From: Alphaproteobacteria bacterium
GTDB lineage: Bacteria > Pseudomonadota > Alphaproteobacteria > UBA6615
DNA: 64,000 nucleotides
Assembly (NCBI GenBank): GCA_039980135.1
Contig: JBDXCV010000003.1
Location: 1,027,458-1,091,457 of the forward strand
Direction: 5' to 3'
Position numbers and translations under genes: made by a program. The notes under the pieces were generated by a model that was given only the letters and a program-made list of their open reading frames with translations, searched no databases and was not told the origin of the DNA. This document shows, piece by piece, positions 26,922 through 33,482 of this stretch (position 1 is its first letter; the number at the start of each line of letters is the position of its first letter).

Positions 26922-27839
26922 TCAGGGCGAGGCCGGGGTCAGCGTGAAACGGCAGGTGCCGCGCGCGATGCTCCGAAACTCGATCGGCGCGCCGGGCGCA
27001 GGCAGGACGGCCTCGAACAGGTCGGACGCCTGATCCGGCACGTCGATCGTCGGCGCGGCGCCGGCATTCTCTGTGACCTGAGCGAAGCGCTGTTCGTTCG
27101 AGACCATGTAGATGCGCATGTCACCCAGGGTGCCGAACACCGCCAGCCGGTCGTCGATAACCCCTTCGAGAATAAAGTCCTTCTGCGCCAACGCGACATT
27201 GCCTTCGGGCACGGCGCATGTGCCGGTCGTCGCCAGGTCGTAATCGCCCGCCAGCGCGCGCGCCGTAGATTCGTCGCGCATGCGTTCGCCCGCGCCGACC
27301 ACGCTCAGGGAATGCACTGCGGCGGCCAGCAGCACCGGTAATTCGATGGCCTCGCCGTTCGGCAACTGCATGTTCGTCCGCGCGTTCTGAAACATCTGTC
27401 CGAAGTTCGGGCTGGTCCGGGCCAATGCCTGCATAAAACCGGCCTGCACCACGATCGAAAAAGTGCCTTCGATGCTCGTCGCGACGGTATGCGCCAGTTC
27501 GTCCCGGCTGCTGTCGGCCACGCCGTTCTCGATTCCGGCCCGAACCGTTTGCATGGTCCTGGCGGTCTCCGCGCTCTGCGCCGTCATCGTATTGAGTGCC
27601 GCATTGAGGCCCTCGATGCGGGCCGGGTCGGTGGTGCCGTCGTAATACAGGAAGACGGCGCCGGGCTTGAACATGTTGGCGGGGCCGGCGGGAAATCGCT
27701 CGCTCTGGGCCTGCGCGGGACCGGCGACCGAAAACGCGAGCGCCGCGGACAGAGCCGCGGCGTTGCGCAATTTCGAAACAGGCTTGCCGACCGGGTACGT
27801 GCGCCCGACGGATGTTTCGCGATGGAAGATGCTGTTCAA
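26922..27839 (-). CDS. Uncharacterised secreted/periplasmic protein, translationally coupled to sdhB
   Basis: Signal peptide [21 protein letters not shown]|QS. Ala-rich, two Cys, no recognised domain. TTG start at 27837-27839 overlaps the sdhB TGA; an alternative TTG lies at 27770. Confidence 0.55.
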
Positions 27840-30830: not shown

Positions 30831-31226
30831 CTATAGCCCTCCGAGGCTGGCGTATCCGGCGACCCAGCTGATGACAGTCAGGACTGCCGCAGCAATGACG
30901 ACCAGCCAACCCGAGGCAAACGCGGTGCTCAGTTCGAAGCCCTTGCCGGCGTCCCAGACCAGATGCCGGATGCCGTTGCAGAGGTGATAGTAGAGCGCGA
31001 AGCTCCAGGCCAGCAGCAGGATCCGTCCGACGACCGAGCCGATGAAGTTCTGCACGGCCGCGAATTCGGTCGGGCCCGCGGCGGCGGCGATCAGCCACCA
31101 GACCAGGAGCAGGGTACCGACGGCGAGGCCGATGCCCGTGATTCGATGAAGAATCGACAGCACCGATGTGAATTGCGGGCGATAGACCTGAAGGTGCGGT
31201 GATAGCGGTCTGTTGTCGGTCGCCAT
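30831..31226 (-). CDS. sdhC: Succinate dehydrogenase cytochrome b556 subunit
   Basis: Start at the internal MATDNRPLSPHLQVYRPQ (ATG 31224-31226). 131 aa. Typical SdhC N-terminus and heme-ligand His. Confidence 0.85.
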   Translation of the reverse strand: MATDNRPLSPHLQVYRPQFTSVLSILHRITGIGLAVGTLLLVWWLIAAAAGPTEFAAVQNFIGSVVGRILLLAWSFALYYHLCNGIRHLVWDAGKGFELSTAFASGWLVVIAAAVLTVISWVAGYASLGGL

Positions 31227-31499
31227 GTGGCCCCCTGACGTGGCTGCAAAGCCGGAACACGGGAAATGGTTCCGGTGGGTTTTCCGTGTGCCACGCGCCG
31301 TTGAACGGTCGTTCATGCCGGTCGCGTGGGTACGAATATCTACGAAGCAGATTTAGCCTCCCACCGCCCGTTTCGTCAATGACACAGCCCCGCGCAAGAG
31401 CTTGGATCGCCGGGCACAGGCTCTCATTGAAGCAAAGCGTGTGGAAAACCTGTGGAGGAGTTGTGATCTACCGGTCGAGTTTTGCACAGGAAACTGTTT

Positions 31500-32135
31500 G
31501 TCGGCCGCGATTGGACATTGCCGCCTTGGGGGTGGCGGCGGAACATGTCCGCGCACGCTTTGGCGTGTCGACGGGTTTCTGTCGCGTCCGATCCTCCGCT
31601 CTGCGGCTGGCTCGGGCAGGTCCGGGGCGCTCACCAGGGGGCGAGACGGATCGGCGGGAACCGAACGCCGGACCACGGGGGTCGCCGCAAGGCGATGCCG
31701 GGTCGGGCGGGAAAGTCGGCGGATGGACATGATCCTTCGGGATCGATCGCCTCGGTGGATGTCCATTCATGTGCACGGTCCGGCATGTGGGCAACCACGC
31801 GCCGGGTGCCGGGCACGGCCGGGCGGCCAGACGGACATGGGCTTCCTCGGAAGGGCATGATCAGAGGCCGGCCGGTAAGGAAGGTGCCGTTGCGCAGACC
31901 AGCGGTCTTTCCGGTGGCGCGAACCCTTCGGGGCCCGCGCGCCGCCCTGATGTCCGCTTCGGTGGGCCCCGGGGCGAAGGAAGGATGGCGGCGTTTCGTG
32001 ATCCAGGCTCTCGCCGGCCAGGAATTCGGAACGACGGCCGGGCGGAAACCGGGGCTCTTCGGAGTTGCGGGGACCAACCGGGCGGGTTTGAGGAAAGGTT
32101 GCCGACCTTAGGCTTCGACCCCTTCGGGGGCGGCA
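31500..32135 (+). ncRNA. Candidate large structured RNA of unknown class
   Basis: A 1.37-kb gap between divergent sdhC and pdxK holds only Arg/Pro/Gly-rich spurious ORFs. Five C(UUCG)G-type hairpins lie at 31731-31744, 31924-31933, 31954-31965, 32054-32065 and 32119-32130. Nested long stems: GGACAT...ATGTCC at 31513-31550, and ATGGACAT...ATGTCCAT enclosing the first UUCG hairpin. Strand inferred from the UUCG loops. Boundaries approximate. Confidence 0.4.
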
Positions 32136-32603
32136 TGGAACGTGTCAAAGCGGACGATGCCGGATAAGCGAAGCGCGCTGGACGACGTATCGGCCAGGGG
32201 TGCGTCCCACGCGCGGAGCGACGAGAAGCTGAACGTCAAGGTGGGTATTGGGTCGAAGCCGGCGGGGCGCAAGCCTCGCGGGTGGGGATCCGAAGGGTCT
32301 GAAGTCCAGGGGGCAACTCCGGGATCGGAAGATCGAGGAAGGCGTCAGGCGTTACGGGCTCCGCGTCCATGCACCTGGCGCCTTCTTCATTTCCGGAGAC
32401 TTTATGCGACCCTTGCCAGAAGGTGATCCGTGCGCCGGGCATGAAAAGAACCCGGCGCTTTCGCACCGGGCTCTTTCTCAGGCGTCTAAAGCCGGGCCCC
32501 GCATCCAGGCAGATCAATATTCGAGAGGTATCAACGGCGTTTCGCGTCGGTCAAACGAATTCTTGTGCCGGGGCGGCGACGAAGGCAAAACCGGTCCCCA
32601 GCG

Positions 32604-33482
32604 ATGAATATTCTCTCCATACAGTCTCAGGTCGTGTTCGGCCATGTCGGTAGCTCGGCGGCCGTATTTCCGCTTCAGTGTCTCGGACATGAGGCCTGGT
32701 CCGTCCCCACCGCGATCCTCTCCAACCATGCCGGCTATCCGGATGTTGGTGGTCATGCGATGCCGCCGGACACAGTCCGCGACCTGCTCGACGGGCTCGA
32801 GCGTCGCGGCGCCTTTCCCAGTTGTAACTTGCTGATCAGCGGCTATCTCGGCAGTGCGGCGCTCGCCGCGCTGGTCACCGACACGGTCGGCCGTGTGCGG
32901 GCGGTAAACCCGGACCTGATCTATTGCTGCGATCCGGTGATGGGCGATGAGGGATCGGGATTGTATGTGCAGGCGTCGCTGCCCGAGCATTTTCGCACCT
33001 CGGCGCTGCCGGTCGCGGACCTTATAACCCCCAACCTGTTTGAACTCGCGCTGTTGTGTGGATGCGATTTCGGGGCGTTGAAGGCGGCGTCGGCGAGCGA
33101 GATCGTCGCGGACGGCCGCAAGCTTCTGGCGCACATGCGGCCGGGTGCCAGTGTCATGGTGACCAGCGCCGACCATCGTGATCTTGACCCGGGGCGCGTG
33201 GCGGTCATTGCGTTCAACGATTCGCAGGCCTGGTCCTTGGAAACGCCGCGGCTTGCGTTTCGATCGGATCCGCATGGGGCAGGTGACCTGCTCAGCGCCC
33301 TCTTCGCGGCGGCGATGACGGATCACCGCGGCCTGGCCCGTGCACTGGAAGATAGTGTTGCCAGGGTCTTTGCCGTTCTTTCGGAAACCCGGCGGCGGTC
33401 AGGCGCCGAACTCGAACTGGTCGCGGCGCGCGATGTGATCGTGTCGCCGGCGCAATACTTCTCGGCGGTTTCGGTCGCCTGA
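32604..33482 (+). CDS. pdxK: Pyridoxal kinase (PdxK/PdxY family)
   Basis: Start at the internal MNILSIQSQVVFGHVGSSAAVF (ATG 32604). Ribokinase-like fold. GDEG...YV and C-terminal GAGD motifs. Confidence 0.8.
   Translation: MNILSIQSQVVFGHVGSSAAVFPLQCLGHEAWSVPTAILSNHAGYPDVGGHAMPPDTVRDLLDGLERRGAFPSCNLLISGYLGSAALAALVTDTVGRVRAVNPDLIYCCDPVMGDEGSGLYVQASLPEHFRTSALPVADLITPNLFELALLCGCDFGALKAASASEIVADGRKLLAHMRPGASVMVTSADHRDLDPGRVAVIAFNDSQAWSLETPRLAFRSDPHGAGDLLSALFAAAMTDHRGLARALEDSVARVFAVLSETRRRSGAELELVAARDVIVSPAQYFSAVSVA

Follow-up and report, generated by a model that had tools for sequence, protein, structure and literature searches.

Bacterial non-coding RNAs of great size and complexity are very rare, and the known classes (RNase P, group II introns, OLE, GOLLD and ROOL) have each revealed catalysis, unusual ribonucleoproteins (RNPs) or RNA-only assemblies. 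Two of them, ROOL and GOLLD, oligomerise (PMC12286853). The element described here lies in a 64,000-nucleotide (nt) stretch of alphaproteobacterial DNA, referred to below as the window (GenBank assembly GCA_039980135.1, contig JBDXCV010000003.1, positions 1,027,458 to 1,091,457 of the forward strand; all coordinates are those of the window). It occupies positions 31480-32394 of the plus strand, between sdhC and pdxK, and is almost certainly the gene of a large structured non-coding RNA of ~915 nt, with 43 homologues, extensive covariation and no match in Rfam. Like the OLE, GOLLD, ROOL, HEARO and raiA RNAs, this RNA exceeds 500 nt, is non-coding, has dozens of covarying helices and conserved, in part invariant, unpaired nucleotides, carries lineage-specific peripheral domains, is narrow in phylogenetic range, and sits in a genomic context that is silent on function. 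In contrast to those classes, it resembles no Rfam family in sequence or structure, it is hosted by marine alphaproteobacteria and not by Firmicutes, phages or rumen organisms, and it is chromosomal, single-copy, strictly syntenic beside sdhCDAB, and accompanied by the predicted gene of a dedicated convergent small RNA (sRNA). To our knowledge, no dedicated convergent sRNA partner has been described for any of those classes. The RNA thus joins the handful of large ornate bacterial RNAs that are orphans, without homology to any catalogued RNA family, and is set apart by the clade of its hosts, by being strictly linked to sdhCDAB and by its partner sRNA.

The element had been noticed in a preliminary description of the window as a candidate structured RNA at 31500-32135, either new and lineage-specific or an extremely long pdxK leader. 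The RNA does cover that interval, but the interval is too short, as the predicted transcript runs from ~31480 to ~32394 and has its own terminator. Of the two proposals, the first is supported by conservation, covariation, strand asymmetry and the lack of an Rfam match. Overlooked at that stage were the partner sRNA, a set of conserved TGTGG repeats and an invariant 3' hairpin. The best overall explanation, and on balance a probable one, is that two convergent RNA genes specify a trans-acting RNA machine or RNP scaffold and an sRNA that would dock on its 3' hairpin.

Consensus fold of the large RNA

Related loci (n=80) were fetched with SdhC as the query. The element is bracketed by a 5' marker motif (TGTGGAAAACCTGTGGAG) and a 3' marker block of ~50 nt (GGAAGGCGTCAGGCGTYACGGGCTCCGCGTCCATGCACCTGGCGCCTTC), and an alignment of 43 distinct full-length copies (A3) was used to test a consensus fold of 219 pairs in 35 helices. 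In this fold 88.0% of cells are paired, compared to 39-46% in control folds of which the 3' partners had been slid by 1-3 columns. Changes on both sides were observed at 128 pairs (66-88 in the slid controls) and in 948 cells (249-341), with a covariation score of 0.354 (0.09-0.12), and none of 500 shuffles reached the observed values. When RNAalifold was applied to the ten closest copies, it returned 291 pairs, 63 of which have compensatory changes. At least 30 helices of the predicted fold are covarying. The strand assigned to the RNA in the preliminary description agrees with two further results: GU/UG cells within the structure number 1493 vs 257 AC/CA cells, and the alifold energy of the alignment is -315 on the plus strand vs -221 on the minus strand. 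Because compensatory base-pair changes are combined with this strong G.U strand asymmetry, selection is concluded to act on the RNA.

Two checks that had been named beforehand, covariation in related genomes and a comparison with known RNAs, thus both favour a new RNA. The Rfam 15 covariance models were run with cmscan on the whole window at the gathering threshold, on 31150-32700 at E<=10, and on six homologues besides. Over the full 64 kb, no family scored as high as its gathering threshold, and the window is therefore considered to be free of tRNA, rRNA and riboswitches. The families covered include RNase P, tmRNA, SRP, 6S, riboswitches, group I and II introns, OLE, GOLLD, ROOL, HEARO, raiA, IMES and sRNAs of alphaproteobacteria. 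The six homologues matched none of them at the gathering threshold, and gave no consistent match at permissive thresholds. At E<=10, 31150-32700 gave only chance matches of 13-18 bits, all of them on the terminator hairpin of the sRNA (ar35, for example, with 14.6 bits vs a gathering score of 45). No description of the RNA was found in the full-text literature or in the latest large survey of intergenic regions (GC-IGR), a search that covered neither subscription papers nor ~1.4 million PMC manuscripts.

The 5' hairpin GCACGC-UUUG-GCGUG (31553-31568, plus strand), already recognized in the preliminary description, covaries in the 43 homologues, with a stem that is 97% paired and has three pairs with double changes. 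Its loop (31559-31562) is complementary to 32237-32240 in a pseudoknot that is 94% paired with double changes at four of four pairs (12-52% paired in slid controls). As this pseudoknot spans ~680 nt, a compact global fold is indicated. The hairpin may take its local form, or its loop and 3' arm may pair with 32235-32246; both arrangements covary, and they may represent a pseudoknot or two alternative conformations. A blind search for further long-range pairings was too noisy for use. Two other stems had been proposed in the 5' half: GGACAT...ATGTCC (31513-31550), which holds in the window and its closest relatives but not beyond them in A3, and ATGGACAT/ATGTCCAT, for which covariation is seen in the ten closest copies.

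The five hairpins with UUCG loops that drew attention to the element are all where they had been placed on the plus strand; 1, 3 and 5 covary in the 43 homologues, but 2 and 4 only in the ten closest copies. Hairpin 1 (GAUCC-UUCG-GGAUC, in the DNA GATCC-TTCG-GGATC; 31731-31744) forms helix 10, which is 99% paired by pair types that include GC/AU/GU/CG, UA/CG/UG and CG/UA/UG, and belongs to a peripheral domain at ~31575-31890. Hairpin 2 (CCC-UUCG-GGG, 31924-31933), enclosed by the stem 31916-31920/31937-31941, has changes between CG and UA in three of the ten close copies; its helices 20 and 21 are 72-73% paired, a weaker support that is due to a class-specific insertion at this point. Hairpin 3 (GUCCGC-UUCG-GUGGGC, 31952-31967, with CCGC-TTCG-GTGG at 31954-31965 as its inner part) is helix 22, in which five of six pairs have double changes (at one of them GC 14, AU 11 and CG 3). 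Hairpin 4 (GCUC-UUCG-GAGU, 32054-32065) has five pairs with one- or two-sided changes in the ten close copies and is recovered in part as helix 25 of A3, and hairpin 5 (CCCC-UUCG-GGGG, 32119-32130) is helix 28, 89% paired with double changes at all three pairs. The number of CTTCGG hexamers expected by chance, previously given as 0.1, is corrected to 0.25-0.36 per 636 nt of one strand; the window has 73 on both strands vs 49.5 in shuffles. A strong excess remains, with P=1e-5 to 4e-5 by our Poisson estimate for five on one strand of 636 nt.

Two hairpins of the core are distinguished by invariance. The central hairpin UCC-A-GGCU-CUCGCC-GGCC-A-GGA (32002-32023, plus strand), of which GGC.CUCGC.G is invariant in the 43 copies, is set within the stem 31992-31998/32027-32033; of the flanking helices, 23 is 95% paired with five covarying pairs and 24 is 93% paired with three. 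The hairpin ACGUAUC-GGCCAGG-GGUGCGU (32185-32205, plus strand) has the loop motif CGGCCAGG in common with it. Here GU.UCGGCCAGGG.U is invariant in 43 of 43 copies, AT-rich ones included, CGUAUCGGCCAGGGGU is invariant in the 16 closer gaps, and the stem (helix 31) has undergone only changes between U.G and U-A and between G-C and G.U. The motif CGGCCAGG was also considered as a repeat signal and rejected, being present in 22 copies in the window and common genome-wide; only its invariance inside the RNA carries meaning.

The periphery of the RNA varies between size classes. Helices 32-33 are missing from a class of ~854 nt, and classes of ~1034-1056 nt have insertions. The shortest variant, L017 (L017:9176-9762, on the complete MAG (metagenome-assembled genome) chromosome OZ244931.1), has 527 nt between the end markers and no equivalent of ~31575-31890, UUCG hairpin 1 included, while its 5' and terminal hairpins, its core and the sRNA are retained. 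Because L017 lacks it, this domain appears to be dispensable. A constant core with a variable periphery is typical of large functional RNAs.

Coding potential, conservation and synteny of the locus

The gap between sdhC (start at 31227, minus strand, Pfam domain Sdh_cyt) and pdxK (start at 32604, plus strand, Pfam domain Phos_pyr_kin) comprises 1376 nt (31228-32603), in which the public MAG record GCA_039982435.1 has no genes called. The earlier view that it contains no credible open reading frame (ORF) is borne out. Substitutions in the gap have no 3-nt periodicity, 1-nt insertions and deletions are frequent across aligned gaps, and no ORF of at least 15 amino acids is common to more than 17 of the 43 copies, whether sought as a shared ORF or as a mini-ORF preceded by a Shine-Dalgarno sequence. 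The frame that crosses the invariant hairpin was searched against 5.8 billion proteins, with only three matches, all of them spurious gene calls. The gap region is 67-70% G+C (59-70% in the test for a replication origin), its plus strand is G-rich with a skew of up to +0.26, and the folding energy of the gap is -537 kcal/mol on the plus strand vs -445 kcal/mol on the minus strand.

The gap is as conserved as pdxK itself, or more so. It is 82-87% identical over its entire length in six genomes of which the PdxK proteins are only 70-76% identical, and ~70-73% identical in four further genomes, three of which have PdxK at 55-62%; with PdxK at 61-62%, the figure for the gap is ~73%. Only conserved islands of the gap are left in more distant genomes. 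Both end markers occur in just the 17 closest of the 80 sdhC loci, which also have SdhB identities of at least 81% and share the neighbourhood synteny. The 3' hairpin is carried by these 17 species genomes and by 36 marine metagenome contigs, located by exact-pattern scan. Across the family, the G+C content ranges from 40 to 68% for the genomes and from 41 to 70% for the RNA, and the fold is kept throughout.

Wherever the flanking sequence suffices, the distance from the 5' motif down to the 3' block is 527-1056 nt and falls into discrete size classes, and a divergent sdhC always lies ~210-250 nt upstream of the 5' motif. The neighbours of the RNA locus are sdhCDAB, pdxK and lysE. In eight loci that retain the large RNA and the sRNA, pdxK is absent, and lysE comes next in the only one of them checked (L107). 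The invariant linkage of the RNA is to sdhC, not to pdxK. No partner protein was singled out by co-occurrence, because all neighbouring genes are simply syntenic in the clade. The two predicted RNA genes, convergent and inherited together, belong to one clade of marine Rhodospirillaceae-like alphaproteobacteria. An ORF of 305 amino acids directly downstream of sdhB (26922-27839, minus strand), which has no Pfam domain, is found in only some of the RNA-bearing loci (51-71% identity) and is absent outside the clade, being an inconsistent partner of the RNA.

This distribution bears on whether the element might be selfish or mobile, for instance a group II intron without an ORF, a retron-like RNA (msr/msd), the guide RNA of a transposon, a bridge or omega RNA, or what is left of a prophage. 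An origin of this kind would suit so large and richly structured an RNA, but the element occurs as a single copy whose syntenic site never varies, an exact-pattern scan of viral contigs and a blastn search of plasmids found no copies, no intron or ribozyme of Rfam matches even at E<=10, and there is no adjacent gene for a reverse transcriptase, recombinase or transposase. A mobile origin is accordingly regarded as extremely improbable.

Predicted ends of the large RNA

The 5' marker of the RNA gene is a triple direct repeat (TGTGGAAAACC TGTGGAGGAGT TGTGA, 31440-31466, plus strand) with a period of 11 bp. Its pattern is TGTGG-N6-TGTGG-N6-TGTG, of which positions 1-18 and 23-26 are invariant in the 43 copies. 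The triple repeat is present only in RNA-bearing loci and only once in the window, where neither the TGTGG repeats nor the sRNA core recur. In AT-rich members of the family TATAAT directly follows the third repeat. The repeats are probably an activator-binding site that replaces the -35 element, and transcription would start near 31480 from an activator-dependent promoter, with the predicted 5' end placed to ~10 nt; the 3' end is taken to be a U tract.

In having three direct repeats with an 11-bp period just upstream of a -10-like TATAAT (in the AT-rich members), the site is like the pho boxes of PhoB and the OmpR family. The repeat unit of a pho box is CTGTCAT, whereas the unit here is TGTGG(A), in a single copy in the 64-kb window. 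The TGTGG repeats can also be read as pho-box-like 7+4 repeats. In a third reading, TGTGGAAAA-CC-TGTGGAGGA-GT-TGTGATCTA (31440-31466) consists of three 9-mers spaced by 2 bp, as in arrays of DnaA boxes. The DnaA box is TGTGGATAA, to which the first 9-mer, TGTGGAAAA, is a match in eight of nine positions; only this first repeat comes near a DnaA box. The arrangement of the 9-mers, along with the divergence of the flanking genes from the gap, would fit a DNA-level element (a DnaA-box cluster, origin, regulatory site or attachment site) in place of an RNA. This is barely credible for the element as a whole, as compensatory pair changes and G.U strand asymmetry point to selection at the RNA level, the region is GC-rich with no AT-rich unwinding element, and just one box is near the consensus. 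An origin is excluded because the GC skew never changes sign in the window; being positive throughout, without a switch, it also places the window on a single replichore. As for the TGTGG repeats alone, they may well serve as a site on the DNA.

At the other end, the terminal hairpin with its U-rich tail UUCUUCAUUUCC (32335-32394, plus strand) has ~24 bp between 32337-32359 and 32365-32386 and the loop UCCGC. This G+C-rich hairpin followed by a U tract is a predicted intrinsic terminator. About 50 nt of it are invariant in the 43 copies, one stem pair changing from G-C to A-U in eight copies; its G.U pairs are valid on the plus strand only, and its tail is U8 in AT-rich members. The invariance goes well beyond the needs of termination. 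A simple terminator scanner missed 32335-32394, probably due to bulges or to the composition of the tail. The transcript may also be reflected in L121 (ENA ERZ4200917 NODE_21957, 1442 nt, 258x coverage), a chimeric contig with the large RNA at ~76-890, in which unrelated sequence is followed by the RNA from the equivalent of ~31569 to ...CACCTGGCGCC, a junction within the terminal hairpin's 3' arm, and finally by an unrelated AT-rich gene. Its very high coverage could mean an abundant transcript, as a hint only, since the sample is of unspecified type.

The terminator also bears on the second proposal of the preliminary description, by which the element would regulate pdxK in cis as its very long leader or riboswitch. 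The large RNA is indeed co-oriented with pdxK and directly upstream of it in most loci, but the conserved intrinsic terminator at 32335-32394 would end it there, a convergent sRNA gene with a minus-strand terminator intervenes before pdxK, and both RNAs occur in the eight loci without pdxK. On account of its own terminator, the intervening sRNA gene and survival of the loss of pdxK, the RNA is not taken to be a pdxK leader, a role that is highly implausible.

Predicted partner sRNA and a possible two-RNA system

The gene of a partner sRNA of ~80 nt, quite probably real, is predicted on the minus strand from 32520, its likely transcription start, to 32440. Its core is CCUGGAUGCGGGGCCCGG (32509-32492) with GACGCCU (32486-32480), conserved in the family as UGGAUGCGGRGC ... 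GACGCCU. Downstream of the core are a terminator hairpin (32476-32445, loop GAAA) and a U tract. The sRNA was aligned in 44 distinct copies, from every size class and from pdxK-less loci as well. Over these, the terminator has 68 G.U pairs if read on the minus strand but 3 on the plus, its minus-strand form is the more stable one in 35 of 44 copies, and 11 of its 13 stem pairs covary; in locus L093, the scanner calls it a terminator, opposite in strand to the large RNA. A likely promoter (32527-32554, minus strand) consists of -35 TTGACC (32554-32549), a 16-nt spacer and -10 GATACC (32532-32527). It appears across the family as TTGACC-N16-GATA(A/C)C, with TTGACCGA.GCGA and TT.ATA invariant or nearly so in 34-44 copies, those of loci without pdxK included. 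When loci were searched with a covariance model of the sRNA, every RNA-bearing one had a single copy, and 35 sdhC loci that lack the large RNA had none; the rest of the window gave nothing but a weak match (22.8 bits) to the antisense of 32328-32384.

That match concerns the terminal hairpin of the large RNA. Positions 32345-32369 and 32478-32507 are direct repeats on the plus strand, and the 5' part of the sRNA is therefore complementary to the terminal hairpin. The complementary segment (32345-32369, plus strand) comprises UCAGGCGU (32345-32352) and CGGGCUCCGCGUCCA (32355-32369), and the complementarity is about 9+15 bp, of UCAGGCGU with ACGCCUGA and of CGGGCUCCGCGUCCA with UGGAUGCGGRGCCCG. 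When duplexes of the sRNA 5' part were sought with RNAduplex on the whole large RNA in 37 loci, the best one was on the terminal hairpin in 36. The only locus with its best duplex elsewhere is L084 (L084:5379-5492), where the sRNA core is CCUAGCUGCGAAGCU rather than the consensus CCUGGAUGCGGAGCC; its large RNA is near-identical to that of L085, the locus used for comparison (L085:1181-1294).

Trans-encoded type I toxin-antitoxin pairs that derive from a local repeat, such as tisB/istR-1, shoB/ohsC and zor/orz, offer a parallel: a small RNA gene next to its presumed target, with ~15-25 nt of complementarity from a duplication. As in the kissing-loop control of CopA/CopT and RNAI/RNAII, complementary nucleotides are found in a hairpin loop of the target (UCCGC vs GCGGA). 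The target here differs from those of all these systems in being a structured 1-kb RNA without a conserved ORF, the interaction is putative, and the pairing site is a 3' terminator hairpin rather than a 5' untranslated region (UTR) or ribosome-binding site. The large RNA might nevertheless be an mRNA that encodes a very small protein, such as a type I toxin to which the convergent sRNA would be the antitoxin, since an adjacent sRNA gene with partial complementarity from a repeat is the arrangement of such pairs, and a 15-codon ORF starts with GTG after GGAGGA at 31463. This ORF, however, is present in just 17 of the 43 copies and varies at codon positions 1 and 2 with position 3 invariant, 3-nt periodicity is absent from the whole gap, and the predicted pairing site of the sRNA is the 3' terminator instead of a ribosome-binding site. 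A toxin mRNA is thus very unlikely; as a type I toxin-antitoxin locus the element was rejected, for it has the adjacent complementary sRNA but no conserved small ORF.

The sdh operon, to which the RNA invariably adjoins through the divergent sdhC, is another conceivable target. The likely sdhC promoter (31350-31379, minus strand) is a matter of context outside the large RNA; it has a -35 element TTGACG (31379-31374), a 17-nt spacer and a -10 element CTAAATC (31356-31350), and CGTCAAT and TTTAG, its plus-strand counterparts, are invariant in the 16 aligned gaps and present in all size classes. The alphaproteobacterial sigma-70 consensus is TTGACGS / GCTANAWC, which these elements fit. A hairpin in the 5' UTR of sdhC (CCGGAAC...GUUCCGG, 31252-31275, minus strand), 25-50 nt before the start codon, is kept in the closest relatives only, and is terminator-like on the plus strand to the scanner. 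As ~60 bp separate the sdhC -35 element from the TGTGG repeats, the RNA or transcription from its promoter could regulate sdhCDAB through shared DNA, promoter interference or pairing in trans with the sdh mRNA. Adjacency is the sole evidence for this, in a clade where the whole neighbourhood is syntenic. The sRNA has no complementarity to the sdhC leader, where duplex energies equal those of shuffles (z about 0), and promoter interference needs no ornate 1-kb fold. Regulation of sdh is decidedly unlikely to be what the RNA is for.

If the sRNA were the effector and the large RNA mainly a sponge or decoy (or the reverse), the fold would serve stability or the regulated presentation of the 3' hairpin. 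The complementarity of the sRNA core to the hairpin in 36 of 37 loci and the strict co-occurrence of both genes agree with this, but there is only one sRNA-complementary site per ~1-kb RNA, and known sponges have repeated simple sites. A decoy needs no ~35 covarying helices, pseudoknot or invariant loops far from the 3' end, and no other target of the sRNA was found when the sdhC leader was tried. A sponge is considered unlikely.

The favoured explanation, a trans-acting large RNA with an sRNA docking on its 3' hairpin, would operate as follows. The large RNA would be transcribed from a promoter in which the three TGTGG repeats of 11-bp period substitute for the -35 element, their geometry suggesting the site of an activator, e.g. 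a response regulator or a DnaA-like binder, and transcription would stop at the invariant 24-bp hairpin and U tract. The RNA, once folded, would have a role in trans, be it that of an RNA machine, an RNP scaffold, an assembly or a catalyst, instead of serving pdxK or sdhC as a leader. The single-stranded 5' part of the sRNA (UGGAUGCGGAGCCCG ... ACGCCUGA) might pair with the terminal hairpin, at its apical stem-loop and along its 5' arm, the loop UCCGC meeting GCGGA first in a kissing-type start. Such pairing could set the 3'-end formation or stability of the large RNA, which could in turn titrate its partner.

The pairing itself is proposed tentatively, as a prediction somewhat short of even likelihood. 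Several observations weigh against it or against the wider explanation. The invariance of the terminal hairpin leaves no intermolecular covariation to score; variants of the sRNA core are a mixture of wobble-compatible changes (A to G, U to C) and disruptive ones (U to A, G to A); the L084 core has several changes; and duplex energies beat those of shuffles only modestly in GC-rich genomes. The direct repeat could be two DNA sites for one protein instead. Scans for sigma-70 promoters were at chance level. It is from sequence that the two promoters, the 5' end and the very presence of both RNAs in cells have been deduced. Any specific function would be a doubtful assignment for the large RNA at best.

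If the prediction is true, the complexity of the RNA is on a par with that of RNase P, OLE or GOLLD. With 43 diverse copies, genomes of 40-68% G+C and a pseudoknot, the family is ready for structure probing, cryo-EM and genetics, and it offers two handles that are rare for orphan RNAs: a conserved candidate regulator site and a co-inherited complementary sRNA. It is possible, though not quite probable, that a new class of ~1-kb ornate RNA and a dedicated, co-inherited sRNA docking on its 3' hairpin constitute a two-RNA system (a ribozyme, RNP scaffold or assembly) of an uncultured clade of marine alphaproteobacteria, placed under a TGTGG-repeat regulator beside the sdh operon. The case also illustrates that annotation pipelines and Rfam can miss RNA genes hidden in seemingly "empty" 1-kb spacers, here in the MAGs of uncultured marine bacteria.

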